DNA of 64,000 nt from Clytia hemisphaerica (GCF_902728285.1 NW_027103826.1:116759-180758); one strand, 5' to 3'; positions 20,629 to 49,924 are shown, numbered from the stretch's first letter. A program made the numbers and translations. Notes: generated by a model not told the origin, from the letters alone.

Positions 20629-20753
20629 TTAAAGAAAAATTGCAAAAATTATTTTTTTTTTAGATTTCTCAATTTTTGGCCTAAACTCACTCAAAAATGC
20701 TGAAAAACACCAAAAAATCACATTTTCAAATTTTTTTTTTCACTTTGTTTAAC

Positions 20754-21366
20754 CCTTTAAGTGCCGATGTCGTATATATACGACATGGGCTATATAGGAG
20801 GGCGAAGCCCTCCTGTAATGCCCAGTTTGAGTTAGAAATCGTTATTTTTGGTCGAACTCGTAGGAATTAGATTGTCCTTTATGGTCAAGCAAAAAAAAAT
20901 TCAAAAGTGAGTCTTTCCAGCGAAATTTTAAGCAAAAAAGTCAAAAAAAATGCAAAAAATTGACAAAAATTCACTTTTTTGAGATTCTGACCGTTTTTTG
21001 ACTATTTTTGGTCAACGAGTGATCCAAGAACCTCCAAATTTGGCCCTGTTTTACTTTATTCTGTCTTCTAGTGAATTGATTTGAAATTTTACCACTGGGC
21101 ACCTTTTCATCAGTTCAGTCAGGTCCGCGCAGCGGGCCTGACTGCTTTAATTCCCTAACCTACCCCCCCCTTGGCCGCCGCCCACCACGCCCTTCCTAAA
21201 TCGGGCGGCGCCGAAGGCGCCCAAAAGAAAGAAGAGACTCTAAGCTATCCAACGAGCTATATACGAGCTTCTAATTCCTTCTAGATCAGGAGATATAAGC
21301 CCTTAAAGTTTGAACTAGCGATTTTTTAAAAAAAACTTAGAAAAAAGGACCCTGGCACTCAAAGGG
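20754..21366. mobile_element. Second copy of the piggyBac-type MITE (613 bp), 125 bp downstream of the first, flanked by TTAA
   Basis: TTAA at 20750..20753 and 21367..21370. About 99% identical to 20017..20628. A 3' fragment of a third copy lies at 19900..20012. Confidence 0.6.
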
Positions 21367-22288
21367 TTAAAAAAGGTTAATGTGAAAAAAAATTTATATA
21401 ATAAGATATAGTCCAAAGTTTATCAATGATTGACTTCAAAAATTATCAAAAACGACAAAAAAGAGCCTTTTTTTTAGTCAAACAGGGATAAAGTTTTAAG
21501 CTGTATTTTTTTATTAAATGAAAAGTTTTTTAATATTTTTTCGCATTTATGACGTTCTAAGATTGACGAAATTCTGATACAAAAATGAAGATCATAGCGG
21601 TACAAGAAGTTGATTTTCTTCTTCTTCATTTTTCATCTTCGTTTTTCCATTTTTTAATTTTTTTCTTTTTTGATAATATTTTACTCCGAATTATCTTTTT
21701 AACGAGCCCAAAACCGTTAACTAATTCAAATTCTATCAAAATTTATCGAGGTTTGAAAATAAACTCTGCCAGCTAATTAGAAATAGACTTTACGAAATTC
21801 TCGCGGTTTTTCACCTTCAAAAGTCCTTCTAAGTGTTACAAAATTACAAAAGACTAAAGAGTAAAAAAAATGAAATATAGCCAATGGTTAGTGTGGAATA
21901 TTCAAGTTTTCCCAAGCAAGCAAAAGTGGTGCCTTTAAAGATTTACGCGGCATTTCACGGGTTGGCGGCATTTCACGGGTTGAATCTGTACTTTCTTCGT
22001 TTTGGGCGTTTTACATTTTTCAAATTCTGGCGATAGCGAAAAAATCCAGTGTTTACATGAAAACCACGCAGGCTGAGCAATATAGGTAGGGAATAAATCG
22101 CTTCAAACACTGAATATGAGATTGACTCTAGGTCGTTGACGTTCCATTTTTTTAGTCGTTTAGCATGCTAGACGATAACTTCAGTTCTATTGAAGAGCGT
22201 GAAAATTGTTATGTTGATGTATATTATAAAAGATTGTGAACTAGAAAATTCTAAAAAATATTTCGTAGTACATTCACATTAAAAGAAA

Positions 22289-25902: not shown

Positions 25903-26541
25903 TTAAGGAAGCCTGAGATTTCATAAAATGACGTATGTTCTAAATAACACTATTCTGAGTGCAAAAAAATGAGTCTCGTATTCTTATAAATGAAAGCCAT
26001 GCTTACTTTCCATCCACAGCCTCGAAGTGTGTCCATTTCAAACCTAATTCCCTCATCGAGTTCCTCATGTGCAAAAACCGATTTTTACGACGTTTCAAAT
26101 TGATGACAAAGATCTGTAAAAGAATTGAAAAGTGCTGGATTTGTATTCCAGTGCTTCTTTTTGCAATAGTTGTATAATAAAATGTTCAGGAAATGTATTT
26201 TCCATGTATTTAGGAAATTCAAACCATAGAAACTTTCGCATTCAGTTTTTTTTATTATCAATTCTAGTCATTTTCAGTTGATATCTAACCTTTCAATTAT
26301 TTTCGGTTTCCTTATTTAGAATGCATTGGATACTCAGATGGCTTAAGATTTTCGCCTTAAATTGTCCCCTTTACGTCCACTATGAGAATCCTCTTGTTTA
26401 GAGAAAATATTGATTGAAATAACGATTGACGTCAAATTGAAAAGGATCCTTGGGATCTTGAATCCTCAATTCAGAAATCCAATTTCCACAGAGTTAAGAT
26501 AAAAAATCCATGTCTTAGTGTGTCTCTACAGGGCAAAAATC

Positions 26542-28500
26542 GGATCAGGTGCAGTTAGCGTGGTCACTGGTTGGATTCTTTAGCAGTGGAGAGCACTGTT
26601 AAAGAATATAACCTAATGTCGTTTAACCTAATAATGTTATAAAATACAGACCAGAATATATTTCACTGTTAAACAATCCAACCTAGTCCACTGTTAAACA
26701 ATCCAACCTAGTCCACTGTTAAACAATCCAACCTAGTCCACTGTTTAACAATCCAACCTAGTCCACTGTTTAACAATCCAACCTAGTCCACTGTTTAACA
26801 ATCCAACCTAGTCCACTGTTTAACAATCCAACCTAGTCCACTGTTTTTTAACAATCCACCTAGTCCATACAGTCCAACTAGTCCACTGTTAACAATCCAA
26901 CCTAGTCCATGTTAAACAATTTGACCTAGTCCACTGTTAAACAATTTGACCTAGTCCACTGTTTAACAATTTAACCTATAGTCATGCCCGGTCCACTGTT
27001 AAACAATTTAACCTACAGTCATGTCCGGTTCACTGTTAAACAATCTGACGTAGTCCAACCCCTGGTCACTGTTTAACAATTTGACCTAGTCCACTGTTAA
27101 ACAATTTAACCTACAGCCATGTCCGATCCACTGTTAAACAATTTAACCTACAGCCATGTCCGGTCCACTGTTAAACAATCCAACTTAGTCCACTGTTTAA
27201 CAATCCAACCTAGTCCACTGTTTAACAATCCAACCTAGTCCACTGTTTAACAATCCAACCTAGTCCACTGTTAAACAATTTGACCTAGTCCACTGTTTAA
27301 CAATCCAACCTAGTCCACTGTTTAACAATCCAACCTAGTCCCACTGTTTAACAACAATCCAACCTAGTCCACTGTTAAACAATTTGACCTAGTCCACTGT
27401 TTAACAATCCAACCTAGTCCACTGTTTAACAATCCAACCTAGTCCACTGTTTAACAATCCAACCTAGTCCACTGTTTAACAATCCAACCTAGTCCACTGT
27501 TTAACAATCCAACCTAGTCCACTGTTTAACAATCCAACCTAGTCCACTGTTTAACAATCCAACCTAGTCCACTGTTTAACAATTTGACCTAGTCCACTGT
27601 TTAACAATCCAACCTAGTCCACTGTTTAACAATCCAACCTAGTCCACTGTTAAACAATTTGACCTAGTCCACTGTTAAACAATTTGACCTAGTCCACTGT
27701 TTAACAATTTAACCTATAGTCATGCCCGGTCCACTGTTAAACAATTTAACCTACAGTCATGTCCGGTTCACTGTTAAACAATCTGACGTAGTCCAACCCC
27801 TGGTCACTGTTTAACAATTTGACCTAGTCCACTGTTAAACAATTTAACCTACAGCCATGTCCGATCCACTGTTAAACAATTTAACCTACAGCCATGTCCG
27901 GTCCACTGTTAAACAATCCAACTTAGTCCACTGTTTAACAATCCAACCTAGTCCACTGTTTAACAATCCAACCTAGTCCACTGTTTAACAATCCAACCTA
28001 GTCCACTGTTAAACAATTTGACCTAGTCCACTGTTTAACAATCCAACCTAGTCCACTGTTTAACAATCCAACCTAGTCCACTGTTTAACAATCCAACCTA
28101 GTCCACTGTTAAACAATTTGACCTAGTCCACTGTTTAACAATCCAACCTAGTCCACTGTTTAACAATCCAACCTAGTCCACTGTTTAACAATCCAACCTA
28201 GTCCACTGTTTAACAATCCAACCTAGTCCACTGTTTAACAATCCAACCTAGTCCACTTTTTAACAATTTGACCTAGTCCACTGTTAAACAATTTAACCTA
28301 CAGCCATGTCCGGTCCACTGTTAAACAATCCAACTTAGTCCACTGTTTAACAATTTAACCTTAGTCATGTCCGGTCCACTGTTAAACAATCCAACCTAGT
28401 CCACTGTTAAACAATTCAACCTACAGTCATGTCCGGTCCACTGTTAAACAATTTGACCTAGTCCACTGATAAACATTCCAACCTAGTCCCATCCCTTGTC
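26542..28500 (+). repeat. Left arm of the giant element: unique terminus plus a ~1.85-kb minisatellite array (unit CCACTGTTTAACAATCCAACCTAGT, ~25 bp) with a ~730-bp higher-order periodicity
   Basis: Direct tandem units with variants (caatttgacctag, caatttaacctacagtcatgtccgg). Blocks at 26940..27180 recur at 27660..27900. Confidence 0.8.
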
Positions 28501-28699
28501 ACGAGTAAACAACCTAACTTAGTTTCATTCCTGGTCACTGGGTTCTTAAAAAAAGAAGAAACTCTCAGGCTCTCAGCTATCCAACGAGCTATAAAACAAA
28601 GTCTAAATCTTTCTGGTTCAGGAAGTATTGGCATTTAGATATTTTCCTAGCTCATTGTAACAAAAAAGGCACGGAACGCTGCTTGGTGAAAATACAGTA

Positions 28700-29950
28700 C
28701 ATGGTGTGATTTGCGTTGTCACTAAAAGAGGTAACGAGTGGTAAGGATGTGGTAACGAGTGGTAACGAGGTGGTAACGAGGTAACCAGTTAAATACGTTG
28801 GCCCTAAAAGGCTCTAATTTTGAATTACTCGATTCTGATGAATGTAGAGCAGGACAATGTTTCCAGTGAATATGATAGTGGAGTTGATGGTCCTGTTGAA
28901 TGTGCAGCAGGGGTTGGTGGTTTAGGTAAATGTGCATCAGAGTTTTATGGTTCTGGTGATTTTAATGGTGGAGTTGATAGTTCTGGTGAATGTGATGACA
29001 GAGTTGGTGTTTCTGGTGAATGGGAGGCAGAAGTTGATGGTTCTGGTTAATGTGCTGGTGGAGGTAACGTTACTGGTGAATTTGATGGTGGATTTGGTGG
29101 TTCTGGTGCATATGATTGTGGAGCAGGAGTTTGAGTTTCTTGTGGATGTAAGTTTGGAGCTTATAGGTATCTGGCAAAATAAGTCAAACACCGACAGTTG
29201 TTAATGTCTTTAGATAGATAGCATTTATCACAATTCTAGCCCTATAGAAAACTGTCAAACACTTGAATACAATATATCGAAATTCATGATAATCCATCCA
29301 TCCCAAGAACAACCAGACCTGATGTAGATCTACCAAAACTAACAGTCTTGCGCTAAGAAGCATCAGAACCAACATGTATTTCTGTAGAACCTTTATAACC
29401 ACAAGGATCTGTTGCATAACCACCAGAACAACCAGTTCCTGCACTGCAGAATCACCATAATCACAAGTTGCTGCTTAAGAATAAGCAGATCCTTTAGGTT
29501 TTGTTGCAGAATCACCAGAATAACAAGGTTCTGTTGCAAGGTCACCAGTTCATGTTGCAGAATCAACAGAACAAACATGTCCTGCTGCAGAATCACAAGG
29601 ACCACCAACTCTTCTATCACATTCACCTAAACCACCAACTCCTGATGCACATTCACCAGAACTACCAACTCTTGCTGCACATTCACCAAAACCAGCAGTT
29701 CCTGCGGCACATTCACCACAACCACTAGTCCCTACTGCAGATTCAACACAACCACCAGTTCCTGATGGACATTCACCAAAACCATGTTAACTAAAGCTGT
29801 AAAGGCATAAATCAGAATCGATTCTTTCGGTTTTACAATATTTGACTCTTTAGGGCTACCATTTTCAACTCGTTACCTCGTTACCACATCGTTACCACTC
29901 GTTACCAGCCGTTACCACTCGTTACCAGCCGTTACCACTCGTTACCACTT
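28700..29950. repeat. ~1.25-kb imperfect palindrome: GGTAACGAG mini-repeats and coding-like (GSGECD..VDGSG) 30 to 40-bp repeats on one arm, with their reverse complement on the other
   Basis: 28733..28790 (ggtaacgagtggtaacgagg..) pairs with 29866..29950 (ctcgttaccactcgttacc..). The 28820..29200 repeats are reverse-complementary to 29400..29780. The centre is near 29250..29350. Confidence 0.6.
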
Positions 29951-30754
29951 TTAGTAACAACGTGTGATTTAATGTATTTAGGAATTTGTATAAACTTTTT
30001 CTGCTTTTTCACACAGCCTACGTATTTATAAGGGCTACTTAGACTACACAATATATTGACGAACAATATTCGACAATATGGTTTGCGGACCGTAATGTAC
30101 GAAGTAAACAACTGGTACTCTATTATAAAAAGGAATTTTCTTTCTGTAAACAATCCCCCTTTATTGTTGGAATATTGCAAATCGAGCTGACAATATATTG
30201 CGGACACCTTTTCAATATATTGCCGACATTCAGCAATATACCATCAATATATTGCCCGACAATATATTGTGTAGTGTATGTAGCCCTATACGGTTTGAAA
30301 AGATGTTTTTACCGGTGTGAACCGGACACTCTCTATTGGTCATAACTCTATACCTAAATGGTTTGTCAGTGATTTGTTATCGGATATCGTATCTGTTCTC
30401 CGTTATGTCAGCTATTAAAATTAAAAAGTCATATAAAGATTTTTTTTAGCCAATCAGATTGCGTTTTGTCCTTGCGGCAAATGAGTAGAAGAAAAAAATA
30501 AAAACATATGTGTACTCCATTTTGAGAATGTGAGAATGAAGTTCAAGAAAAAGACTATTATTTATTTATCATGCATATTAAAAAGGCATTAACAATAGTG
30601 TCTACAATTTCTTCTTTTGTTCTTTCAAATCAAAAAAATACTTAAAGTTATATCTGGAAGCGTTTGCGTCGCTATTCACACATATATTTTTTTCTCATGG
30701 AAATTAATATTTCCACAAACGCAGGTTTTTCATATCATTGTCGACGCGTTTACT

Positions 30755-30936
30755 ATGGCTGCAGTGCATCGGAGATTTTTACAGAGATGGGGAGCATTAC
30801 TTTTAGGCAATGATAAAATTGCAATCATACATTTTCTACAAGGACAAGGTTTACTAAGTGTTGTCAAGATGTGTCAAACTTGTGGTTCGCCGATGCAACT
30901 TGAAGCTAATAGACAATGCCGTGATGGGTTTAGATG
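30755..30936 (+). CDS. IS1595/ISXO2-like (Merlin-superfamily) DDE transposase, exon 0 (ATG 30755; N-terminal zinc ribbon)
   Basis: MAAVHRRFLQRWGALLLGNDKIAIIHFLQGQGLLSVVKMCQTCGSPMQLEANRQCRDGFR(W) matches the IS1595 transposase zinc-ribbon N-terminus (..C..YL..RWP.G..CP.CG...). Donor tg|gtaagt is phase 2 and joins exactly to exon 1 (tg+g=W). Confidence 0.55.
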
Positions 30937-31822
30937 GTAAGTTTTTATCATGAAGTTGTAATCGTACCTTTAGTTTTGAGGCAATTTGAAATCCAACTTG
31001 CTCCCTTTGGGTTCTGGGTTAAGTTAAAGGCTCCTCCTTGCAAAAAGGCTAGAAATACATCTTAAAATAATTTATTACTTAGAATAAACACCCCTTCTTT
31101 TAAACACCTCCTCGGATAAAAGCCCCCTTTTTTAGGAAAATAATTAATAAACGTCTCCTCCTCAAATAAACGCTCTTCCCTGGAAGGGTTTTTTTATTTA
31201 AAAATAGGCTCTTAGTCGAAACTTTCATTTTGAGAGAGAAATGGATACTTCGACACACAAGAACAAGAACATCGATAATTTTTAAAAATGTTGTTATGGT
31301 ATAAAAATATATGTATCGCATTATCAAAAACAATTCTTCGTGTTTAATTTTTCAAAATTCTCGAATAAATGCGCACACCCCCTTAAAATCCAAAAAAACG
31401 AATTTTTCACGAATATGGCCCTAATTCGCAAAAGTTTCTTCAGAAAAATTAATCTCAGACAGGCAATTCGCAAAATATTTCTTTCGCGAAAGTTACTTTC
31501 TTTCAATCAATTTTTAGTCAGAGATAAAAAAATATTAAAATGATCTAAGAGACAATCATTAATTAATACAAATACATTTTCTAGTCCATAACAACTAACG
31601 TTTCCTTTTTTTCATCAAAACGTGATTAAAACAGTACGCATTTTTATATAATTTGCGAAAACTTCTTCCGTAAAAGTAATTTCGGAGAGCTCAATTCACG
31701 AAATATTTTCCGCGAAAATTACTTCCCTTAGGGTAGGAGCGATAATGGAATGTAGTTAGAAGGTCGGTTATGACAACATAAATTTTATCCAGACAATTTC
31801 TAACACAGATATTTTTGTTTAG

Positions 31823-32123
31823 GAGGTGTAACCGACCATGTCGCAGATGTTTGAGGCTCCGAGATGGGACAATATTTGAATCGTGGACGCATATTTCCCT
31901 TAGTGATTTATTTTTGATAATCTTCCTGTGGTCAAACAACGTTTCTATGACCAAAATAACGAATATTGTTGGAATACCAAAAAAAACAGTGATCAAAATG
32001 TTGCAGCTTCTTCGCCAAGTCTGTACGAATGATCTAGCCAGAAACCCAGTTGCTATTGGTGGTGGGGGGGGTGCTAATTTTGTTGTCCAGATTGACGAGA
32101 GCCAATTCCATCACAGGCAAAGA
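31823..32123 (+). CDS. Merlin/ISXO2-like transposase copy 1, exon 1
   Basis: Acceptor tttgtttag, donor AGA|gtatgt. Encodes RCNRPCRRCLRLRDGTIFESWTHISLSDLFLIIFLW..TKITNIVGIPKKTVIKMLQLLRQV..VAIGGGGGANFVVQIDESQFHHRQR. These are the second Cys pair, the HTH, and the first catalytic Asp of the DDE motif (V.IDES). Confidence 0.65.
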
Positions 32124-32324
32124 GTATGTTTTCATACGAGTGAGAGAGATTTTTAACTACATTTTGCTCAAAAGTTTGTCATTCTTTTAAATTTTTGATA
32201 GAATCGAATGCATATTTTGCAGTTTAGTCTTAACAAAAAAATTGAATATTTTCCAAAGTGCGTTCGACTTCATTACATAATGTTGTTTTGACCCTATTCT
32301 TTTAATTCTCGTTTCTTTATATAG

Positions 32325-32603
32325 GGAGGAAGAGGAAGAAGAGCGCAGGCACCTGTTTGGGTATTTGGCTTGGCCGATACTCAATACACACCCGCCAAAG
32401 GCTATATGGAAATTGTGAACAGGCGAAATAGGCCCACTCTCACTGCTGTAATTAATCGGGTTTTGAACCCTAACTCTGTCATACATAGCGATGAATGGCG
32501 TGCTTACAATAGGCTTCGAAACTTTGTACCGAACTGCATACAACACGATACCGTAAACCATACATACAACTTTGTCGATCCTCTAACAGGAGCCCACACA
32601 CAG
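32325..32603 (+). CDS. Merlin/ISXO2-like transposase copy 1, exon 2
   Basis: Acceptor tttatatag, donor CAG|gtaacc. Encodes GGRGRRAQAPVWVFGLADTQ..TLTAVINRVLNPNSVIHSDEWRAYNRLRNFVPNCIQHDTVNHTYNFVDPLTGAHTQ. This fits the ISXO2-like consensus (GGK.K.RGR...V.G.VER......L..II...V..GS.I.TDEW.GY..L..GY.H.TVNHS..FVDP.TG.HTN). Confidence 0.7.
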
Positions 32604-32809
32604 GTAACCAGACAATAATTTTTTGTAAAATTAGCCATTGGGCTCGGTACATTTTTTTAGTTCTCTGTAAAATTCTTGTAAAGTTTGCAGTTCCCTAAAA
32701 ACCCCACCCCACCCATAAAAGTAAAAGCTTTGAAAAGTGATATTTTTAACGTTTTTATATTTTAGAAAAGTTTATACTTTTTTCAAACCCTTTCTTTTTT
32801 TTTCATTAG

Positions 32810-32910
32810 AACATTGAATCGTACTGGAACCGTTTTAAGCTGAAACTGAAAGCTATGAAAGGTGTCGAACGAGCCAATTTACAAAGTTACATGAACGAGT
32901 TCATGTGGAG
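32810..32910 (+). CDS. Merlin/ISXO2-like transposase copy 1, exon 3
   Basis: Acceptor ttcattag, donor ag|gtaatt. Encodes NIESYWNRFKLKLKAMKGVERANLQSYMNEFMW (consensus NTIEGFWS.LKR...G...L..YL.EF.FR). Confidence 0.6.
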
Positions 32911-33232
32911 GTAATTATTTTTCAATCGGAAAGAAATGATTTGAAGCTACCTGACACTGGCAGGCCTCTCATAACAGATGAGATGAAGTTTTTATAAGAT
33001 ACTTTAATGATTGGTCATTTGAAGTAATAACAATGACGTGTTCTTTAGAAAAAGTAACAAAATTGTTTTATTACTGGTTAACGACCAACCGAATCAAATG
33101 AGAGCTTGTAAAAATTCAATCTCGTCCCTCTCATAAGGAATAAAACAGCTAGTCCTAAATTTTTATTGGGTTTAAACGTCATTTGATAATCCATAGATTA
33201 GGCAATTTAATGATTTTGTAATTCTTTTTTAG

Positions 33233-33305
33233 GGACTGGTATGGACTAGACCAAACATTTGACAACATAATCAACCGGATAAATATTGATTATCCACAAG
33301 CTTAA
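33233..33305 (+). CDS. Merlin/ISXO2-like transposase copy 1, exon 4 (stop TAA 33303..33305)
   Basis: Acceptor tttttag. Encodes (R)DWYGLDQTFDNIINRINIDYPQA*. The five exons sum to 936 nt, which is 312 codons, so the phases are consistent. Confidence 0.55.
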
Positions 33306-34503
33306 GTTTGCTTTCATTGAAGTATGATTTTTATGTTTTCTTTTGTTATTGATTCACAAGTCATAGTTTGACTTCTAGAGACTAAAGCTATTTTTAGGTA
33401 TTTTGTATGTATATGGTATAACATTTCATTATGCAGAACAAAGACTCTTACCATTAAAAATATACTTTAACTCTTTATATTTTGCCCTTTCCGCCAAAAT
33501 TTGTCTCGCGATATCGCGTGGGATCGTCGATTCGCGAAATCAAATCGTCAAATCCACGCGAAATTTTTGAAACTACCATTTTAGCAAACAAAGTTATCAA
33601 AACCATGCAATTTTGGTAAAATATGTCCATTTTTAGGGTCTTTCGCGAAATTATACTCACGCGAAAGTCTTGACTCACAAAATTAAATCCTATTAAAGTA
33701 GCCTTAATCTGTCTTATCTTGAAATTGTTCACATTGGTTAGTGCTCCTTCTTTTCCAGGCAACGTTGAAAAAAAGGTAAACAAACAGGGTAAAAAGGCAC
33801 GTATAGTAGTGACAGGAACAATGTGAAAAGTATACTTGGGTGCGATGTATACTTGTCTTGGGTGCGAGGAATACTTATGAAATGTACAGTGCTCAGTAAA
33901 ATTGTTTTGTGTAAGTTCCTGTGAAAAGTGCTGAACATCCTAGTTTGGAAGATAGGCAAAAAAGTGTTCTTTTTCGCAAAGGTTGATTTTAGTTAAATCG
34001 GAGTCAAATGGGTCAATCATGAAAATTAATTCTTGCGAAATATATAGTCAAATAATCTTGATTTCCTTAAGATTTGCTCAAAAATTAAGAACATCTTAAA
34101 AACATGCCAAGGTTGAAATGAAGAAGAAAAGTCTACTAAGGGATTCTTAACGCTTAAATAACAGACACAAAACATAATTTCAACATTGTTTCAATGTCCA
34201 ACTAATGTCTGATGTTGAAATAACATTTTTTGAACAACAAATTTCAAAGCTACTTTTTTGGATTCATTTTCTCAAAAAAATTGTTTTTAGCACTTACAAG
34301 TACCATAACGGGCGTTTTTCAGACTTGTCGAGCGCCCTCTCCACCCGATATAATTTATTTATAGAAGTGTATTTCTCAGGTCCATTGACCTCTATGAAAC
34401 AATCTTACATTTTTACAATTTATAGATCTTATCATTCGTTTGTCAATTCTGTTATAGAGTTTTACAGTTAGGTACCTGGGCCTCTAACCCACTCTTCTTA
34501 TAA

Positions 34504-35455
34504 TCATGTTGTTTCCGTCGAAAATTTCTTTAAATAGAGTTTAGTCCTAGGACTACCTCTCACTTTCCATATACCACTCTTGTCTTTTTCATTCGATGTT
34601 TTTTCTTTTGCTTTACGATGCCATTGTTTTATTATCTCCCGTTCTTTCCTTGAAAAATCGTCTGATACCCTGAAATCATCTTTATCTAGTTTGTGGGCTG
34701 ATGCAAGTATTCTAATCCTTTCTTCTTCACTCTCGAGAGTAACTTTCAATGGTCTCCATCGTTCATTTGTATACATTTCATCTTTACGAGCACCTATGCG
34801 TCTTCTACCTTGATTATCGTCACATCGAAAACCCATTTGTTGTTTCAGTATTCTTTCTATGAAATCTTTGTCACCAACTCGTTGCTCTTCTTCGTTTTCG
34901 TGCTTGTTTTCACCTAAATCATGCACCATGATGTTGCACTTGGTTGATTTGAGCCAACGCTCCTCTTCGTTCACTGATTTGATGAAACTTTTTATGGTCA
35001 CCTCTTGTTTTTTGTAGATCTTCTTTGGTGACTTCTGCATATGATTGTTTTTTTGTTTCTGTGTTGTTGAGCTGTGTTTCAGATCGTTTGTTGTTCCGTT
35101 CTTTGTTGACGTCTTTTTTTTTCATTAGCTTCTCGATTTTCCTTTCTAGAGAGGTTATTCTCTCGTTGAAACCTAATTTCAATCCATGATGTTCATCTTT
35201 GTCTGCTTCTTTCGTTGTGATGTCACTGCGAGCTTTTTGTCTGCTTGTTTTAATCCTCTCAAATAAGAGTGGCGTTATTGTAACACAATTTCCACATTCG
35301 AAGCGCCGGCTTTTATATTGCAGACAAAGCTGAATCTGATAGGCCGGGAGCTCAGAGCAAGCATAATGGACAAGTCTATCACATCTCCTACATTGTAAGG
35401 TGTCGTTATCTTCTATGATGGTGTTTATCAAACAGTTATTGGTTGTGCAATACAA
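34504..35455 (-). pseudogene. Frameshifted duplicate of the L1 ORF1p-like gene (tandem-duplication copy 1)
   Basis: Two overlapping frames (34504..35040 and 34919..35455) together cover the same protein as 39355..40302. Indels of 4 nt net break the frame. Confidence 0.55.
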
Positions 35456-36671
35456 TATCCATAATTTTTTTGAATTTCCTTGTTAGAATTTTCGTTGATT
35501 TCCGTCATATTGTTGCATTTTCAGGATCGTGGCAGCACAGAAAAAATTTGACGTCAATATATAAGGGGGGGTAAACCGGCCGGAGTACCATTTTCAACTA
35601 GTAATATCTCCTAAACCAAGCATTTTATGAGGCTTTTGTAGCTACCAATCGAAAGAGGACAAAATTCTGAACAAAAAAAACTGGTTTTGGGCGCCACCTA
35701 GCCGTTAACGATTATCACCATGCATTAACTCCTTTGATACCGTTCCAGCCAAAATCGTTCCTATTGGAACGACGTTTTCTCCAGCCTCTGATAGAAAGAA
35801 ATTTTCAATCGCTTTGAAACTGCATTTTCTTGAAAGTTGATACTTTTAATTAAAACGAAAACGACGTTTTCATACCGTGAAAAGCACAGCTCAAAATCAT
35901 ATATTTACGCTGTGCCGACGAATCGAGATTCTATTCATCGCGCAATCAGCGAAGACAAAAGTAACCATGACGACCATCCAAGATCTTGGATGAGCGTCAT
36001 AGTCGATATTTTTATTCCCGTCGTTGAAAACACAACTTACAAAAAGTCATCAATGCTTTTTAAAAAGAGTCAGTGATAGAGAATCATAACATAAAGTCTG
36101 TCTATTATTTCGATTCAATTAAAGTGACATTTCCATAATTAAAAGTTTAGTAATTACTGTTATACATTTGGGGATCATGTAAGAGATTTCTTTCGAAATA
36201 AACTCATTTCAACTAAACTTGGAGGTTGTTTCTGGGGAATTCGTAAATAGTAAACTGCATACTGATACAGTCTGCTAGACATTAATATGGTAATATTTGC
36301 TCTTCATCTTTGATTTTTTTTACAGTGATTAGATTGACACATGCGCGATAAAATTTCTATTATTTTGTCTTCAGAGGTTACTATTTTCTTTGAAAACTTA
36401 ACCTCTGATACTCAGGGTAACGTTTTCAAGTCTTTCATTAGTAAGTACGTTTCCTTTTTTTCATCAAAACGTGATTAAAACAGTACGCATTTTTATATAA
36501 TTTGCGAAAACTTCTTCCGTAAAAGTAATTTCGGAGAGCTCAATTCACGAAATATTTTCCGCGAAAATTACTTCCCTTAGGGTAGGAGCGATAATGGAAT
36601 GTAGTTAGAAGGTCGGTTATGACAACATAAATTTTATCCAGACAATTTCTAACACAGATATTTTTGTTTAG

Positions 36672-36969
36672 GAGGTGTAACCGACCATGTCGCAGATGTT
36701 TGAGGCTCCGAGATGGGACAATATTTGAATCGTGGACGCATATTTCCCTTAGTGATTTATTTTTGATAATCTTCCTGTGGTCAAACAACGTTTCTATGAC
36801 CAAAATAACGAATATTGTTGGAATACCAAAAAAAACAGTGATCAAAATGTTGCAGCTTCTTCGCCAAGTCTGTACGAATGATCTAGCCAGAAACCCAGTT
36901 GCTATTGGTGGTGGGGGTGCTAATTTTGTTGTCCAGATTGACGAGAGCCAATTCCATCACAGGCAAAGA
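36672..36969 (+). CDS. Merlin/ISXO2-like transposase copy 2, exon 1. This is the duplicated paralogue; its unit has no exon 0, so it is probably 5'-truncated
   Basis: Near-identical to 31823..32123 with one Gly codon fewer. There is no upstream zinc-ribbon exon inside its 4.85-kb unit. Confidence 0.5.
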
Positions 36970-37170
36970 GTATGTTTTCATACGAGTGAGAGAGATTTTT
37001 AACTACATTTTGCTCAAAAGTTTGTCATTCTTTTAAATTTTTGATAGAATCGAATGCATATTTTGCAGTTTAGTCTTAACAAAAAAATTGAATATTTTCC
37101 AAAGTGCGTTCGACTTCATTACATAATGTTGTTTTGACCCTATTCTTTTAATTCTCGTTTCTTTATATAG

Positions 37171-37452
37171 GGAGGAAGAGGAAGAAGAGCGCAGGCACCT
37201 GTTTGGGTATTTGGCTTGGCCGATACTCAATACACACCCGCCAAAGGCTATATGGAAATTGTGAACAGGCGAAATAGGCCCACTCTCACTGCTGTAATTA
37301 ATCGGGTTTTGAACCCTAACTCTGTCATACATAGCGATGAATGGCGTGCTTACAATAGGCTTCGAAACTTTGTACCGAACTGCATACAACACGATACCGT
37401 AAACCATACATACAACTTTGTCGTCGATCCTCTAACAGGAGCCCACACACAG
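37171..37452 (+). CDS. Merlin/ISXO2-like transposase copy 2, exon 2
   Basis: Same as copy 1 exon 2 with a 3-nt insertion (..NFVVDPLTG..). Confidence 0.5.
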
Positions 37453-37658
37453 GTAACCAGACAATAATTTTTTGTAAAATTAGCCATTGGGCTCGGTACA
37501 TTTTTTTAGTTCTCTGTAAAATTCTTGTAAAGTTTGCAGTTCCCTAAAAACCCCACCCCACCCATAAAAGTAAAAGCTTTGAAAAGTGATATTTTTAACG
37601 TTTTTATATTTTAGAAAAGTTTATACTTTTTTCAAACCCTTTCTTTTTTTTTCATTAG

Positions 37659-37759
37659 AACATTGAATCGTACTGGAACCGTTTTAAGCTGAAACTGAAA
37701 GCTATGAAAGGTGTCGAACGAGCCAATTTACAAAGTTACATGAACGAGTTCATGTGGAG
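37659..37759 (+). CDS. Merlin/ISXO2-like transposase copy 2, exon 3
   Basis: Identical splice sites and coding sequence to copy 1 exon 3. Confidence 0.5.
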
Positions 37760-38086
37760 GTAATTATTTTTCAATCGGAAAGAAATGATTTGAAGCTACC
37801 TGACACTGGCAGGCCTCTCATAACAGATGAGATGAAGTTTTTATAAGATACTTTAATGATTGGTCATTTGAAGTAATAACAATGACGTGTTCTTTAGAAA
37901 AAAGTAACAAAATTGTTTTTATTACTGGTTAACGACCAACCGAATCAAATGAGAGCTTGTAAAAATTCAATCTCGTCGTCCCTCTCATAAGGAATAAAAC
38001 AGCTAGTCCTAAATTTTTATTGGGTTTAAACGTCATTTGATAATCCATAGATTAGGCAATTTAATGATTTTGTAATTCTTTTTTAG

Positions 38087-38159
38087 GGACTGGTATGGAC
38101 TAGACCAAACATTTGACAACATAATCAACCGGATAAATATTGATTATCCACAAGCTTAA
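38087..38159 (+). CDS. Merlin/ISXO2-like transposase copy 2, exon 4 (stop 38157..38159)
   Basis: Identical to copy 1 exon 4. Confidence 0.5.
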
Positions 38160-39354
38160 GTTTGCTTTCATTGAAGTATGATTTTTATGTTTTCTTTTGT
38201 TATTGATTCACAAGTCATAGTTTGACTTCTAGAGACTAAAGCTATTTTTAGGTATTTTGTATGTATATGGTATAACATTTCATTATGCAGAACAAAGACT
38301 CTTACCATTAAAAAATATACTTTAACTCTTTATATTTTGCCCTTTCCGCCAAAATTTGTCTCGCGATATATCGCGTGGGATCGTCGATTCGCGAAATCAA
38401 ATCGTCAAATCCACGCGAAATTTTTGCTACCATTTTAGCAAACAAAGTTATCAAAACCATGCAATTTTGGTAAAATATGTCCATTTTTAGGGTCTTTCGC
38501 GAAATTATACTCACGCGAAAGTCTTGACTCACAAAATTAAATCCTATTAAAGTAGCCTTAATCTGTCTTATCTTGAAATTGTTCACATTGGTTAGTGCTC
38601 CTTCTTTTCCAGGCAACGTTGAAAAAAAGGTAAACAAACAGGGTAAAAAGGCACGTATAGTAGTGACAGGAACAATGTGAAAAGTATACTTGGGTGCGAT
38701 GTATACTTGTCTTGGGTGCGAGGAATACTTATGAAATGTACAGTGCTCAGTAAAATTGTTTTGTGTAAGTTCCTGTGAAAAGTGCTGAACATCCTAGTTT
38801 GGAAGATAGGCAAAAAAGTGTTCTTTTTCGCAAAGGTTGATTTTAGTTAAATCGGAGTCAAATGGGTCAATCATGAAAATTAATTCTTGCGAAATATATA
38901 GTCAAATAATCTTGATTTCCTTAAGATTTGCTCAAAAATTAAGAACATCTTAAAAACATGCCAAGGTTGAAATGAAGAAAAGTCTACTAAGGGATTCTTA
39001 ACGCTTAAATAACAGACACAAAACATAATTTCAACATTGTTTCAATGTCCAACTAATGTCTGATGTTGAAATAACATTTTTTGAACAACAAATTTCAAAG
39101 CTACTTTTTTGGATTCATTTTCTCAAAAAAATTGTTTTTAGCACTTACAAGTACCATAACGGGCGTTTTTCAGACTTGTCGAGCGCCCTCTCCACCCGAT
39201 ATAATTTATTTATAGAAGTGTATTTCTCAGGTCCATTGACCTCTATGAAACAATCTTACATTTTTACAATTTATAGATCTTATCATTCGTTTGTCAATTC
39301 TGTTATAGAGTTTTACAGTTAGGTACCTGGGCCTCTAACCCACTCTTCTTATAA

Positions 39355-40302
39355 TCATGTTGTTTCCGTCGAAAATTTCTTTAAATAGAGTTTAGTCCTA
39401 GGACTACCTCTCACTTTCCATATACCACTCTTGTCTTTTTCATTCGATGTTTTTTCTTTTGCTTTACGATGCCATTGTTTTATTATCTCCCGTTCTTTCC
39501 TTGAAAAATCGTCTGATACCCTGAAATCATCTTTATCTAGTTTGTGGGCTGATGCAAGTATTCTAATCCTTTCTTCTTCACTCTCGAGAGTAACTTTCAA
39601 TGGTCTCCATCGTTCATTTGTATACATTTCATCTTTACGAGCACCTATGCGTTCTACCTTGATTATCGTCACATCGAAACCCATTTGTTGTTTCAGTATT
39701 CTTTCTATGAAATCTTTGTCACCAACTCGTTGCTCTTCTTCGTTTTCGTGCTTGTTTTCACCTAAATCATGCACCATGATGTTGCACTTGGTTGATTTGA
39801 GCCAACGCTCCTCTTCGTTCACTGATTTGATGAAACTTTTTATGGTCACCTCTTGTTTTTGTAGATCTTCTTTGGTGACTTCTGCATATGATTGTTTTTT
39901 TGTTTCTGTGTTGTTGAGCTGTGTTTCAGATCGTTTGTTGTTCCGTTCTTTGTTGACGTCTTTTTTTTTCATTAGCTTCTCGATTTTCCTTTCTAGAGAG
40001 GTTATTCTCTCGTTGAAACCTAATTTCAATCCATGATGTTCATCTTTGTCTGCTTCTTTCGTTGTGATGTCACTGCGAGCTTTTTGTCTGCTTGTTTTAA
40101 TCCTCTCAAATAAGAGTGGCGTTATTGTAACACAATTTCCACATTCGAAGCGCCGGCTTTTATATTGCAGACAAAGCTGAATCTGATAGGCCGGGAGCTC
40201 AGAGCAAGCATAATGGACAAGTCTATCACATCTCCTACATTGTAAGGTGTCGTTATCTTCTATGATGGTGTTTATCAAACAGTTATTGGTTGTGCAATAC
40301 AA
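39355..40302 (-). CDS. LINE-1 ORF1p-like protein (Transposase_22-like RRM plus C-terminal domain) with an N-terminal PHD-like C4HC3 zinc finger and a coiled coil; 315 aa, intact
   Basis: The C-terminal half (KCNIMVHDLGE...FIERILKQQMGF...RWRPLKVTLESEEERIRILASAHKLDKDDFRVSDDFSRKEREIIKQW) parallels L1 ORF1p (NLRIIGVPE...R.IIVKF.K...KE.IL.AAREK....G..IRL.AD.SAET...RREW). The N-terminus is CLINTIIEDNDTLQCRRCDRLVHYACSELP..C..C, followed by a K/E-rich coiled coil. There is no RT or endonuclease ORF nearby. Confidence 0.6.
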   Translation of the reverse strand: MYCTTNNCLINTIIEDNDTLQCRRCDRLVHYACSELPAYQIQLCLQYKSRRFECGNCVTITPLLFERIKTSRQKARSDITTKEADKDEHHGLKLGFNERITSLERKIEKLMKKKDVNKERNNKRSETQLNNTETKKQSYAEVTKEDLQKQEVTIKSFIKSVNEEERWLKSTKCNIMVHDLGENKHENEEEQRVGDKDFIERILKQQMGFDVTIIKVERIGARKDEMYTNERWRPLKVTLESEEERIRILASAHKLDKDDFRVSDDFSRKEREIIKQWHRKAKEKTSNEKDKSGIWKVRGSPRTKLYLKKFSTETT

Positions 40303-41809
40303 TATCCATAATTTTTTTGAATTTCCTTGTTAGAATTTTCGTTGATTTCCGTCATATTGTTGCATTTTCAGGATCGTGGCAGCACAGAAAAAATTTGACG
40401 TCAATATATAAGGGGGGGTAAACCGGAGTACCATTTTCAACTAGTAATATCTCCTAAACCAAGCATTTTATGAGGCTTTTGTAGCTACCAATCGAAAGAG
40501 GACAAAATTCTGAACAAAAAAAACTGGTTTTGGGCGCCACCTAGCCGTTAACGATTATCACCATGCATTAACTCCTTTGATACCGTTCCAGCCAAAATCG
40601 TTCCTATTGGAACGACGTTTTCTCCAGCCTCTGATAGAAAGAAATTTTCAATCGCTTTGAAACTGCATTTTCTTGAAAGTTGATACTTTTAATTAAAACG
40701 AAAACGACGTTTTCATACATACCGTGAAAAGCACAGCTCAAAATCATATATTTACGCTGTGCCGACGAATCGAGATTCTATTCATCGCGCAATCAGCGAA
40801 GACAAAAGTAACCATGACGACCATCCAAGATCTTGGATGAGCGTCATAGTCGATATTTTTTATTCCCGTCGTTGAAAACACAACTTACAAAAAGTCATCA
40901 ATGCTTTTTAAAAAGAGTCAGTGATAGAGAATCATAACATAAAGTCTGTCTATTATTTCGATTCAATTAAAGTGACATTTCCATAATTAAAAGTTTAGTA
41001 ATTACTGTTATACATTTGGGGATCATGTAAGAGATTTCTTTCGAAATAAACTCATTTCAACTAAACTTGGAGGTTTCTGGGGAATTCGTAAATAGTAAAC
41101 TGCATACTGATACAGTCTGCTAGACATTAATATGGTAATATTTGCTCTTCATCTTTGATTTTTTTTACAGTGATTAGATTGACACATGCGCGATAAAATT
41201 TCTATTATTTGTCTTCAGAGGTTACTATTTTCTTTGAAAACTTAACCTCTGATACTCAGGGTAACGTTTTCAAGTCTTTTCATTAGTAAGAAAACGCCCC
41301 GCAAACTTTCTCATTTCTCAATTGTTCTCTTTCTGGCGGTATTGAAAGAGTTAAAACAACGCTCCGTGCCTGCTATTACGGTTCTCTAGAGAATTGGACT
41401 CGTATATAGAAGAACATTAAGAAGAACATCCCATCTGAAAATTGAGAAAATAAAGTCCAAATAATACGTAAATACGATTTTAGAACAAAATTAAAATGCC
41501 TTGCGCATGATTTTATTTTCGTCACCCGGTAATGCAGAAATGAAGAGTTTTTAGATTTGGCCGCGGGTTGAATTTTTTTCATTCATTCATTCATTCATTT
41601 AATGAATGAAAATGAAATGGGATGTCTTTTCCCCCAAAAGAGCAAGAAAAAAAATTTAATCACGTGTTTTTTTTTCTTTCACGTTTTTTTTCTTTTGTAT
41701 CCCCTTTTCATTTTTCTTTCTTTATTTGTTGGCTTGAACGTCAGACGTTCACATTAGTAAACTTTGAGGGAGATTTCATTTCGGTCATTTGCCAATTGAA
41801 ATCGTAATC

Positions 41810-43521
41810 ATGACCTTTGAAGACATATTAGCGATTTGTGAAGATGAGCAAGTTTTGATAAGGGAGCTGATGGATGCTGGCTTATTAGCGAGTACAAGAA
41901 AATGTATGAACCGGAGAAAACACGAAGACGATATTCAGATGATATTATTGCCAGATATGAAGACTTGGTAAGACGTTTTAATTTGCTTTTGTTTACCCTG
42001 AAAAATCATTTACGTTTCTATGAAGCTCTTTCTCCTTTCATGAATCTGATAAATATCAATCTCAAAGATGTTTGATACTTTCATTTGAAGTCTTAAAAGC
42101 CTTTAAATATAAAATATATCAAGAAACAAAGTCTAATAAAATATCAACACAATATATCAGCAGTAAACAAATAACTGACGCTTAAAAGCGGCAATTTTTT
42201 AATCCCCAGTAAGTTAATTATTTTTAACTTATTTTTTGCCTACATGTTTTTAAGGCGATGCCCAAGATGTACAAGCAAAGCTTCATTCAAGACGGGGTCG
42301 TTTTTTTCGCAAACAAATATACCACTTTCAAAATGGATTCAAGGCATTGATAGATGGGCACGCCAGATGAGCCTTAGGGTAATGATATATTTAAAAAAGA
42401 GGACACAATGAAAAAAACAGACCTTTATGTCCTTTATCGTAAATACTAACCTGATATTCATATGCTGAATTTTCTATCGGTACGTTTTTAAAGCTCTAAA
42501 GACACAATGAAAATATACCATCTACGTAGGCTAGGTCATCTTTTCAAAGCCCTACCTTAAGCTTAAGTAGCTAAATGCATACCCAGCAGGCATGGGACGT
42601 TGTTTTAACGTCCAAAATACGTTTTAAGAAATTTTAAGCTCTTAACAATTTCGGTCCAGTTTAAAAATAAAAACCAGTAAACAGTTTAAAATGTCTGCGA
42701 AATTTTCATGTAATAAAATATACTTTGATTCTTTAGGAGATTGCTGAGGATTTGGACTTGTCGATTCCTACAACAAGCCAAATGATGAAGCATTTTCGAG
42801 AGCAGTGTCAAAGTTTTTTCGACCGCAATCTTCATGAAACTGGTGGCCCTGGTATTCAAGTAAAAGTTAAAGAACTTAAGGTAATACCATTTTTACCGGT
42901 TGAAAGAGAGATCGCTACAATCGGTACAAAATCCTTTTTGCTTATTACCTAACCCTAACAAGAAACTATTTAAAAACAAAAGGTTGTTGAATCAAAACTA
43001 ACCAGATGGCCCGGCTGGTATCCTACTTAAAATTTGGGTATTTCTTAAAAAAGAGAATAGATAACATCGGGTGCCTAGGATTTGTTACTCTTAATCTAGA
43101 CTCAAATTAGTTTTATACTTTTTTTCAATAGAAATGCACCAACACGTGTAATATTCTTATCGCGTTAGATGGCAGTTGCGGACGAGGATACCTTTTCCAC
43201 AATACCAATGGAAGATTCCAGGAAGAAGATTATATGTTTGTGTCACCAATCAAGTCTGGAACCATGGTCTTCACCGACATTCGCGATTTAAACGTAAGGC
43301 CAAATGTTGCCATGTCCAATACTCTGGAGTTGTTTCAAGGCAATGACGATCAAGCGACACAAGCAATTAGATGGCTCAGGCACTTCAGAGGGGTACAATG
43401 TCAAAAGGCTGGTGCCCTATTATCTGAATATAATTTGCGCTTTTGGGTCGATGATGGACTGGAATTCCATGAAAGATTTTTTCAAGCTTTCGTAAGAAAC
43501 TATGAAAATGAATTTGTATAA
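41810..43521 (+). pseudogene. Divergent third IS1595/Merlin-like transposase paralogue, probably degenerate or catalytically inactive. Exon-like blocks at 41810..41967, 42737..42880 and 43132..43521
   Basis: Block A, MTFEDILAICEDEQVLIRELMDAGLLASTRKC.., is the N-terminal F.DE..C..L motif. Block B, EIAEDLDLSIPTTSQMMKHFREQC...TGGPGIQVKVKELK, aligns to ITNIVGIPKKTVIKMLQLLRQVC...GGGGGANFVVQIDES with the first catalytic D replaced. Block C, ..ILIALDGSCGRGY..FTDIRDLNVRPNVAMSNTLELFQGN..RHFRGVQCQKAGALLSEYNLRFWV, aligns to IHSDEWRAY..FVDPLTGAHTQNIESYWNRFK..LQSYMNEFMW. The GGK/RGR linker segment is missing and the A-to-B phases do not join cleanly. Confidence 0.4.
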
Positions 43522-43639
43522 ACTAAAATATATTGATCGCTAATTGTTGATTAAAGTGATAGTTTTTTATGGATCTATGAAAATCTTATATTTTTTATTG
43601 TTCTTTTTTTGAGAAAAAAAATATAAACTTAATTCCTAT

Positions 43640-44882
43640 GCTTTCATCGCCTATGCTTTCATCAATTTGACTAGGTCAAATTGTTTAACAGTGAACCGGA
43701 CATGGCTCTAGGTTGGATTGTTAAACAGTGGAAGGTTGGATTGTTTAAAAGTGGACTAGGTCAAATTGTCAGTGGACCGGACATGACTGTAGGTTAAATT
43801 GTTAAACAGTGGACTAGGTTGGATTGTTAAACAGTGGACTAGGTCAAATTGTTTAACAGTGGACCGGACATGACTGTAGGTTAAATTGTTAAACAGTGGA
43901 CTATAGGTTGGATTGTTTAACAGTGGACTAGGTTGGATTGTTAAACAGTGGACTAGGTTGGATTGTTAAACAGTGGACTAGGTTGGATTGTTAAACAGTG
44001 GACTAGGTCAAATTGTTTAACAGTGGACTAGGTTGGATTGTTAAACAGTGGACTAGGTCAAATTGTTTAACAGTGGACCGGACATGACTATAGGTTAAAT
44101 TGTTAACGTGGACTAGGTGGTTGGTTACTAGTGGACTAGAGGTTGGATTGTTTAACAGTGACCGGACATGGCTAGGGTTGGATTGTTAAACCGTGGATTA
44201 GGTTTGGCTTGTTAAACAGTGGACTGTAGGTTGGCTTGTTTTCACAGTGGACTTGGGGGTTGTTTAAACAGTGGACTGGTTGGATTGTTAAACAGTGGAC
44301 TAGGTTGGATTGTTTAAACAGTGGACTAGGTTCAAATTGTTTACAGTGGACTGTTGGCTTGTTAAACAGTGGACTAGGTCAAATTGTTTAACAGTGGACC
44401 GGATGTGTGGTTTGTTAAACAGTGGACTAGGTTGGATTGTTAAACAGTGGACTAGGTTGGATTGTTAAATAGTGGACTAGAGGTTGGATTGTTTAACAGT
44501 GAACCGGACATGGCTAGGTTGGATTGTTAAACAGTGGATTAGGTTGGATTGTTAAACAGTGGACTAGGTTGGATTGTTAGTGAAATTGTTAAACAGTGGA
44601 CTAGGTTGGATTGTTAAACAGTGGACTAGGTTGGATTGTTAAACAGTGGACTAGGTTGGATTGTTTAACAGTGGACTAGGTTGGATTGTTTAACAGTGAA
44701 CTAGGTCAGATTGTTTAACAGTGGACCGGACATGATTATAGGTTGGATTGTTTAACAGTGAAATACTTTCTGGTCTGTATTTTATAACATTATTAGGTTA
44801 AACGACATTAGGTTATATTCTTTAACAGTGCTCTCCACTACTAAAGAATCCAACCAGTGACCACGCTAGCTGCACCTGATCC
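43640..44882 (-). repeat. Right arm of the giant element: the same minisatellite in inverted orientation plus a unique terminus
   Basis: CTAGGTTGGATTGTTAAACAGTGGA units are the reverse complement of the left array. 44760..44882 is the reverse complement of 26542..26650. Confidence 0.8.
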
Positions 44883-45631
44883 CAAAAATCAAAACCACCC
44901 GATCGCCCTTTTCAGGAGTTCTGCAAATTCTAACTCAAGAGCTACAAATAAGGATTTTAAAATCATGTAAAGTCACCTCCTCAAATTCAGCAAAAGTAGG
45001 TTTAGGAAATCGATGAGGTATATTTGGACTTCGCACTATTTCCTCGCCGTGTGCTTCACCTGAAATAAGTGGATTTATATTGTTATTAAAGGTTATACTA
45101 GGAACAAGTGTAAATTATAGTCTATGCTCTTTCATAGGACACAGTTAATAAAGGGTCATTCGACATCAGTTATGAAATTGAACACTTTTCAACCAGACCA
45201 AAGGAAAACAACATCGGAAAATTTCGAAATACTAGGTTACGCAAGCTCTTTTTAGCGTATCAGAACTATACAGACGAACAAAGAATTAGTAGACATCTCA
45301 AAGCTACTAACTTTTGGAAAAATCTTTGGGGGGCAAATGCCCCCCCCCCCCCCCCGGTTGCTACGGGCCTGAACTGACCTCGAACCGGGAAAGCAACCAA
45401 GAGTTCCCAAAGAAGAAGCATTTTGAGCATTATTTGGCATTGAAATGTGCACCGATGGTATTCGAATACCTAATTAGAGGTATCTTGAATATAAAATGAG
45501 ATAAAAGCCAAAATTTTCGAAGTTGCTAAACATTTTAGGCTCAAAATCTATGCGCATCTTTTTGACTGAAATCCAGAAAATCCTTAGCAACTCCAGAACT
45601 CTTGAAAAGACTCGGAAAACAGATGACCTAC

Positions 45632-49381: not shown

Positions 49382-49924
49382 CACAATGAAAACTGACCTT
49401 CCGTTTCTTGTTTTATTTATCTATGATGAAAATATCAAAAAATATTCACCGAGCCATCAAGTGTATTTCTGGATGTGCGTACTCTGTATTCGTGCTTTTG
49501 TCTCTGAATAAAAACGGAGAAAGTAAATATAATACCAATACATCATACCATTGCAAAATTGCATTTTTACTTTATGTGGCATACATCTACATATTACACT
49601 ACGTATCATTTTTGATTGCAACTCGTTTTACTACCTCATCTACTAAATGGAGGTAATTAAGATAGATAATTAAAGAAAGTCTATTATGCTATCAATGAAA
49701 TACGGAAATGAATCAATTAAAGTGAATATAAACAAGCAACATGCTGAATGGACCTACCTGATTAACATCAGATGAAAATAAGAAAAAAGTGACAATAATT
49801 GTACAAAAATTCAGAATGGAAAAATAAAGCTTGTGTGTTGAATAATGTAAAATGGTAAAAAGGAATTTCCCCAAATACGAAAATCACTTAAACCATTCAG
49901 GCTCAAAAAACCTTTTAAGCTGTT

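Follow-up and report, generated by a model that had tools for sequence, protein, structure and literature searches.

An 18.3-kb insertion in a COLGALT1-like intron of Clytia hemisphaerica, very probably a Merlin-superfamily transposon, with an intact transposase and a DDE-less paralog

What kind of element has expanded an intron of a collagen galactosyltransferase-like gene in the hydrozoan Clytia hemisphaerica, and does its size set it apart from DNA transposons already catalogued? The locus lies in a 64,000-nt stretch of the genome assembly (GCF_902728285.1 NW_027103826.1:116759-180758; hereafter the window, to whose coordinates all positions refer), where 18.3 kb of sequence (26542-44882) interrupts a gene resembling procollagen galactosyltransferase 1 (COLGALT1). 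An initial annotation, made by a model from the sequence alone, had described this segment as an architecturally new, composite transposon of the Merlin/IS1595 type. The Merlin superfamily itself reportedly goes back to work by Feschotte in 2004. According to our analysis, 26542-44882 is very probably a single copy of a C. hemisphaerica cut-and-paste DNA transposon that belongs to the Merlin superfamily (related to IS1595/IS1016) and is inserted in an intron of the COLGALT1-like gene.

Ends, target site and host intron

The edges of the segment, the repeats just inside them, and the host exons on either side are as follows (TSD, target-site duplication).

~26113-26006, minus strand: host exon just downstream of the insertion, acceptor ag followed by IFVINLKRR…EAVDGK; acceptor site 420 nt from the element
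26534..26541, no strand: left TSD, 8 bp, CAAAAATC, read from the sequence; abuts the first element base
26542..26663, plus strand: left unique terminal inverted repeat, opening with 5'-GGATCAGGTGCAG; 140/144 nt agree with the right end in reverse complement
26664..28523, plus strand: left subterminal array, built of the 25-bp unit CACTGTTTAACAATCCAACCTAGTC and 37-bp variants; 1.86 kb, ~65 core motifs
43680..44760, minus strand: right subterminal array, built of the same unit as the left one (CACTGTTTAACAATCCAACCTAGTC, 25 bp) in the opposite orientation; 1.08 kb, ~34 core motifs
44761..44882, minus strand: right unique terminal inverted repeat, its reverse complement beginning GGATCAGGTGCAGC..., from sequence comparison
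44883..44890, no strand: right TSD, 8 bp, CAAAAATC, read from the sequence
~45059-44977, minus strand: host exon just upstream of the insertion, …KPTFAEFEE followed by donor gt; donor site 86 nt from the element; aligned to human COLGALT1 (PDB 9u7j)

The left boundary reads …tctacaggg CAAAAATC GGATCAGGTGCAGTTAGCGTGG… and the right boundary, in reverse complement, …ggtggtttt GATTTTTG GGATCAGGTGCAGCTAGCGTGG…, with a duplication that is exact at 8 bp and cannot be extended to 9 bp on either flank. The chance of an 8-mer match at fixed positions is ~3e-5 given the base composition of the window, and the flanks can be joined to reconstruct an empty site (…GTGTCTCTACAGGGCAAAAATCAAAACCACCCGATCG…). 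Inside the duplications both ends read GGATCAGGTGCAG…, that is, they have 5'-GG termini. The initial annotation had described these ends as 29-bp reverse complements of each other; they are indeed inverted, and the terminal 29-mer occurs twice in the 64 kb (once per strand, where shuffled sequences predict none), but its two copies differ at position 14 (T versus C) and the inverted identity runs for 144 nt at ~97%, with four mismatches at positions 14, 43, 116, and 117. The transposon structure and its insertion are real, far beyond chance.

The first 122 nt of each end are unique, and the arrays start at element position 123. The left unique terminus includes, at element positions 53-77, a single 25-bp unit that has diverged, as well as a partial core in inverted orientation, and the left array contains a higher-order duplication of ~738 bp. 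Beyond the arms, the window holds only three scattered, chance-level matches to the core motif at two mismatches. Inverted arrays of a 25-bp minisatellite had been proposed at 1.2-1.9 kb; the arrangement stands, and the measured sizes in the list above replace that range.

The host gene runs on the minus strand and is homologous to COLGALT1 (PDB 9u7j, E=5.5e-68). The two small exons that flank the insertion have canonical splice sites, and the join of their peptides (…KPTFAEFEE to IFVINLKRRKNRF…) corresponds to …MGFDE/VFMINLRRRQDR… in an alignment with the human protein. With the element the intron measures 18,863 bp and without it 514 bp, not ~21.7 and ~3.4 kb as first estimated, an error that arose because the two small exons had been missed. 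Its orientation is antisense to the gene, and 86 nt separate the element from the 5' splice site upstream of it. In its main outline the initial annotation is borne out here: a Merlin/IS1595-type transposon with a perfect 8-bp TSD (exact CAAAAATC at 26534-26541 and 44883-44890, abutting inverted termini), long minisatellite arms whose 25-bp arrays face in opposite orientation, and a position inside a COLGALT-like intron, now secured by the alignment of the flanking exons to human COLGALT1.

A COLGALT1-like paralog (gene A) stands in tandem with the host gene on the minus strand (8655-1153) and runs off the window; over the exons seen, the two proteins share 46-66% identity. Gene A was considered as a stand-in for the empty site and dropped, its homologous intron falling outside the window.

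The transposase gene and Merlin membership

Inside the arms lies a gene that ties the element to a known superfamily.

30755..33304, plus strand: Merlin transposase gene, modelled with five exons (30755-30936, 31823-32123, 32325-32603, 32810-32910, 33233-33304)

The model has canonical GT-AG introns and encodes an intact protein of 311 amino acids, confirming the full-length, intron-containing transposase that had been proposed. Its predicted kinship also holds in a profile search: the protein matches the Pfam family DDE_Tnp_IS1595 (PF12762) over residues 154-288 with E=4.2e-20 and 72.7 bits (cutoff 27). The DDE triad consists of D152 (IDES), D217 (HSDEW), and E257 (NIESYW), and in a 12-sequence family alignment D152/E153, D217, and E257 occupy invariant or near-invariant columns. 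The two aspartates are separated by 65 amino acids, against a range of 50-70 given for Merlin (PMC8101967). Over 291 amino acids the protein is 40% identical (E=1e-72) to Acropora XP_015769854.1, which the same survey counts among cnidarian Merlins (PMC8101967).

Merlin elements have TSDs of 8 or 9 bp and terminal inverted repeats starting 5'-GG, and internal tandem repeats recur among them (PMC8101967). The Clytia element shares with the superfamily an IS1595-type DDE transposase with its catalytic triad and DDE_Tnp_IS1595 match, an 8-bp TSD, and 5'-GG ends, in addition to its similarity to an accepted Merlin transposase. Clytia itself falls outside that survey (PMC8101967), and our literature search found no paper describing a Clytia Merlin family.

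Other C. hemisphaerica proteins match the transposase at 99% identity or more. One of these, XP_066924142.1 (P0217, 310 amino acids), equals our gene model minus one glycine in a run of glycines. The RefSeq contig of 1.31 Mb on which P0217 is annotated also bears a second near-identical gene (P0001), which includes exon 1 and carries D74N and a 2-bp deletion; at least two copies are thereby suggested. More distant relatives occur in marine metagenomes (L001-L003), where the genes are intronless and lie beside tandem arrays, on contigs too short to reveal a second gene or span both ends. In two of these contigs the arrays (L001:149-611, a 66-bp unit repeated 6 times, and L002:2238-2663, a 146-bp unit repeated 3 times) adjoin transposase relatives at 50-57% identity, an arrangement consistent with subterminal arrays being a trait of the lineage. 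Matches to the transposase profile on viral contigs reach only 21-33% identity; we took them for prokaryotic IS1595 elements on phage contigs and set them aside as irrelevant.

These features suggest how the locus arose. On this reading the element inserted antisense into a COLGALT1-like intron of ~514 bp, duplicating the 8-bp target CAAAAATC. By analogy with other DDE transposases, the encoded enzyme would bind the 5'-GG termini and the 25-bp subterminal units through a zinc-ribbon/helix-turn-helix (HTH) N-terminus, pair both ends, cut the element out, and insert it at a target cleaved with an 8-bp stagger. The locus is also an example of how a 0.5-kb intron can be enlarged 37-fold in one step, and then further by nesting and internal duplication. 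The element's transposase is intact, its ends are defined, and its empty site can be reconstructed; as a Merlin copy in a cnidarian that serves as a laboratory model it is clean, apparently recent, and possibly still autonomous, and it could be of use in the study of Merlin transposition, for which we know of no biochemical model, and in genetic tools for Clytia.

g3, a transposase paralog lacking the DDE triad

Near the right arm lies a second gene, g3, which had been listed initially as a third, divergent transposase copy.

41810..43521, plus strand: g3, modelled with four exons (41810-41967, 42255-42378, 42737-42880, 43132-43521); intact, 271 amino acids

A word-index search with g3 returned no relatives, and an exhaustive HMMER search returned 286. 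Among them are three full-length Clytia paralogs at 40-43% identity (XP_066923368.1, or P0064, XP_066928349.1, and XP_066925006.1) and metagenome relatives at 25-31%. Members of the family, among them P0064-P0066, P0075, and P0085, are ~270 amino acids long; they occur in Clytia (three RefSeq "uncharacterized proteins") and in marine metagenomes. When the g3 family was compared with the Merlin transposase family by hhalign, the two matched over 260 columns (probability 99.7%, E=5e-27), and g3 and the transposase are therefore homologous end to end. In both genes intron 1 interrupts the codon for the W of a W-R-C motif in the same phase, a common position that points to DNA-level duplication of an intron-bearing ancestor.

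The relationship does not extend to the active site. Across the g3 family the first D is missing in every member, the second D is variable, and the E is missing. The zinc-ribbon/HTH layout of the N-terminus is kept, and an AlphaFold2 model of g3 (predicted local distance difference test score, 90) shows an integrase-like core plus an HTH. g3 is thus a maintained, non-catalytic paralog of the transposase. The third copy of the initial annotation is thus present at 41810-43521, as a DDE-less paralog.

The conserved DDE-less paralog inside the element is the only real surprise of this locus and a lead worth following. Elsewhere in the genome, the g3 paralog P0064 is annotated on the same 2.89-Mb contig as a transposase paralog (P0012), the one hint that g3 might regularly accompany the transposase. 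A metagenome relative of g3 (L010) sits by itself on a contig of 2.2 kb that shows no transposase, and was set aside as uninformative. We offer as a tentative idea, which we hold to be possible and rather doubtful, that the Clytia Merlin lineage is a two-protein transposon composed of a catalytic transposase and a conserved, intact, DDE-less g3. If g3 does prove a regular component, a two-protein variant would be added to a superfamily thought to encode one protein. No description of a second gene of this kind for Merlin was found in the accessible literature.

As for function, g3 is most plausibly a non-catalytic end-binding cofactor or regulator. Having the same DNA-binding layout without an active site, it might act as an architectural cofactor or copy-number regulator by binding the 25-bp units repeated near both ends, competing or cooperating with the transposase at the same sites. 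Such a part would resemble those of TNPA in En/Spm and of the truncated repressors of P elements. CACTA/En-Spm elements encode the transposase TNPD together with TNPA, which binds subterminal repeats. The Clytia element is comparable in encoding two proteins and in having, in each arm, many short subterminal units, which one protein may bind while the other cleaves. It differs in that its transposase belongs to an unrelated superfamily and its second protein is a degenerate transposase paralog; the parallel would be one of mechanism, not of membership.

Length, secondary insertions and competing explanations

Much of what makes the element look exceptional lies in the interior, between the left array and g3 (ORF, open reading frame; LTR, long terminal repeat).

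28713..29962, no strand: nested foldback-like non-autonomous element, 1.25 kb, with inverted termini, repeat arms, and its own TSD
31598..36446, no strand: tandem duplication unit 1, 4.85 kb, beginning within transposase intron 1
36447..41290, no strand: tandem duplication unit 2, with transposase exons 2-5 only (~36673-38156) and the better-preserved ORF1-like copy
34504..35455, minus strand: ORF1-like gene copy 1, frameshift-broken, from the sequence
39355..40365, minus strand: ORF1-like gene copy 2, with PHD finger, coiled coil, and RRM-like region, from the sequence and homologs

The nested element has terminal inverted repeats (CGTTGTYACTAAAAG; CGTTGT(C/T)ACTAAAAG) that occur only twice in the window and do not start with GG. 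Its inverted arms are built of (GGTAACGAG)n and diverged 30-bp repeats, and it is flanked by an exact 8-bp TSD of its own (TGTGATTT at 28705-28712 and 29963-29970). It is a secondary insertion and not part of the original Merlin. Between it and the transposase gene lies a 257-bp inverted-repeat unit (30031-30287, AGGGCTAC…GTAGCCCT) with TA-rich flanks, which looks like a miniature inverted-repeat transposable element.

The tandem duplication is head-to-tail, with the junction …CATTAGTAAG/T/ACGTTTCC…. Since it begins inside transposase intron 1, the second transposase copy has exons 2-5 only; the duplicated copy noted at the outset is present, as part of this 4.85-kb unit and without exon 1. 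The two units show no substitutions and 18 insertions or deletions (indels) of 1-4 nt. Most of these indels are micro-tandem duplications (GTC, TCG, CCGG, CATA), an odd mutation spectrum that could reflect slippage, repair, or assembly noise. Protein variants corresponding to both units occur in independent Clytia annotations (NFVDPLTG in P0217/P0218, NFVVDPLTG in P0219), which argues that both units are real.

Each unit also carries an ORF1-like gene. In copy 2, a methionine codon at 40365-40363 is followed by an in-frame stop at codon 12 (40332-40330) and then by an open frame of 315 codons. A homolog with 30% identity at 99% coverage (P0060) lies directly upstream of a 1025-amino-acid ORF2 with apurinic endonuclease and reverse transcriptase (RT) domains in the contig L008, and we therefore regard the gene as of the non-LTR ORF1 type; closer homologs lie on contigs too short to show any adjacent ORF2. 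Like non-LTR ORF1 genes of the PHD type, its 315-codon frame encodes a PHD finger, a coiled coil, and an RRM-like region, the PHD finger being the only Pfam match of the protein family. It departs from them in the nonsense codon at position 12 and in standing within an element where our search beside the gene found no ORF2 or RT remnant. Neither the protein nor its 13 aligned homologs matched the Pfam family Transposase_22 (L1 ORF1p), and the label of an L1-type ORF1p, under which the gene had first been entered, was rejected on that ground; a non-LTR ORF1 homolog, PHD type and interrupted, is what stands. We read it as a decayed solo fragment, captured or nested, and not as functional cargo; the gene cargo of the initial annotation thus reduces to a solo ORF1-type pseudogene. 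In the duplicated unit and in the nested element, the other small ORFs gave no Pfam match.

Two side observations concern retroelement sequences of this kind. The only RT remnant in the window, from a non-LTR retrotransposon, lies outside the element on the minus strand (54149-56201; E values as low as 5e-16 when the ORF2 of L008 was used in tblastn). On the metagenome contig L004 (532-5189), a 38%-identical ORF1-like homolog adjoins a Mutator-type transposase and a THAP-domain ORF, possibly another case of an ORF1-type gene in or beside a DNA transposon.

Is the element, then, a new structural class, a composite or cargo-carrying "giant" Merlin defined by its 18-kb size, foldback-like arms, and passenger genes? 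Its length, kb-scale inverted arms, and three gene types speak for that view, as does the absence of Clytia from the Merlin survey (PMC8101967). The Repbase entries in the S1 Table of that survey speak against it: one zebrafish Merlin is at least 10.3 kb long and another at least 13.7 kb (PMC8101967). In Merlin-1_DR the terminal inverted repeat measures ~1000 bp and the repeat coordinates reach 10,335; Merlin-2_DR has a 79-bp array near both ends (12.5 copies at 847-1832 and 9.7 copies at 12117-12880) and coordinates to 13,661; and Merlin-N5_DR has a terminal inverted repeat of ~1000 bp with a 113-bp array of 5.2 copies at both ends (PMC8101967). Long Merlins with kb-scale inverted ends and subterminal arrays are therefore already catalogued, which contradicts the premise that known Merlins have short terminal inverted repeats and measure 1-3.5 kb, and with it the claim of a new architecture. 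Tandem repeats, moreover, are already a recurrent Merlin feature (PMC8101967).

The size of the Clytia copy is also partly secondary. Of its 18.3 kb, ~6.1 kb consists of the 4.85-kb tandem duplication and the 1.25-kb nested element, which it gained after or during its history; without them it would measure ~12.2 kb, inside the range of catalogued Merlins. Nor do the passengers define a class: the decayed solo non-LTR ORF1-type gene that the element additionally holds has a stop at codon 12 in its better copy and frameshifts in the other. The composite structure claimed at first was rejected, as there is a single pair of termini, no internal inverted pair of at least 12 nt brackets the transposase gene or the other genes, and the second transposase copy lacks exon 1 and termini of its own and stands in a head-to-tail duplication. 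We consider a new structural class quite improbable. Compared with the zebrafish elements, which it resembles in long terminal inverted repeats, subterminal arrays at both ends, and a length above 10 kb, the Clytia element differs in its hydrozoan host and its longer arrays (1.1-1.9 kb of a 25-bp unit), and it adds a DDE-less paralog gene and an ORF1-type pseudogene, a comparison made with the zebrafish Merlins as entered in the S1 Table. It is a new Merlin family member in a cnidarian, not a new architecture.

The arms themselves raise a different possibility. They recall those of Drosophila Foldback (FB) elements, which likewise have long inverted arms of short tandem repeats. The TSD is 9 bp in FB, a size class similar to the 8 bp seen here. 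The resemblance is descriptive only: the Clytia arms open with 122 nt of unique sequence and their repeats stop short of the tips, the element carries a Merlin transposase, and it has no sequence relationship to FB. Membership in Foldback was rejected because the arrays begin at element position 123 and not at the termini.

A second array-armed element without a transposase, ~1.4 kb long, lies at 60390-61770 (with flanks, 60381-61779); it has inverted termini GAGTCTGCTAAATTGCGTGGG… followed by inverted arrays of an 18-bp unit TGCGTGGGTCAATATTTT, and a 9-bp direct repeat (TGTTGAAAG) flanks it. Short termini, inverted subterminal arrays, and 8-9-bp duplications seem common in the Clytia genome.

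The outer ends and arms could accordingly belong to a non-autonomous element of foldback type into which the Merlin genes arrived separately, in which case the TSD would not be the work of the encoded transposase. The window does contain two transposase-less elements (28713-29962 and 60390-61770) with short termini, inverted arrays, and 8-9-bp duplications, and such arms therefore exist independently in this genome. Against a nest of two unrelated elements, inside the arms we found no inverted-repeat pair of at least 12 nt around the region of the transposase and g3. The outer termini are themselves typical of Merlin in their 5'-GG and 8-bp duplication; g3 ends ~160 bp from the right array, and, not counting the nested element, ~1 kb separates the left array from the start of the transposase gene. 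Because no inner inverted pair was found, the outer ends bear Merlin hallmarks, and g3 lies near the right array, we treat the segment as one element; an origin from two unrelated elements seems very unlikely. It is scarcely credible that the structure arose without transposition, from faulty assembly or from a local rearrangement (inversion or duplication) across the minisatellite arrays: long inverted arrays and a near-identical 4.85-kb repeat whose units differ by short indels only are hard to assemble, but misassembly would not create unique 144-nt inverted termini exactly flanked by an 8-bp repeat in a continuous intron, and both transposase variants appear in independent annotations.

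The reading of 26542-44882 as one Merlin copy has several points to set against it. The insertion is known from its occupied site, and mobility and family copy number are argued from this single insertion together with indirect protein evidence. Scans of metagenome contigs with the 26-nt terminus and with the 25-bp unit gave 0 matches each. The indel-only difference between the duplication units could partly be assembly noise, and binding to the 25-bp units, whether by the transposase or by g3, is proposed by analogy with other systems.

Rfam searches of the whole window gave no matches. Two further repeats in the window lie outside the element. A 627-bp direct repeat occurs at 20013-20637 and 20749-21374 with 99.5% identity, and a tandem array of a ~322-bp unit, present in ~3.5 copies at 49904-51017, contains ORFs of 100-146 amino acids.

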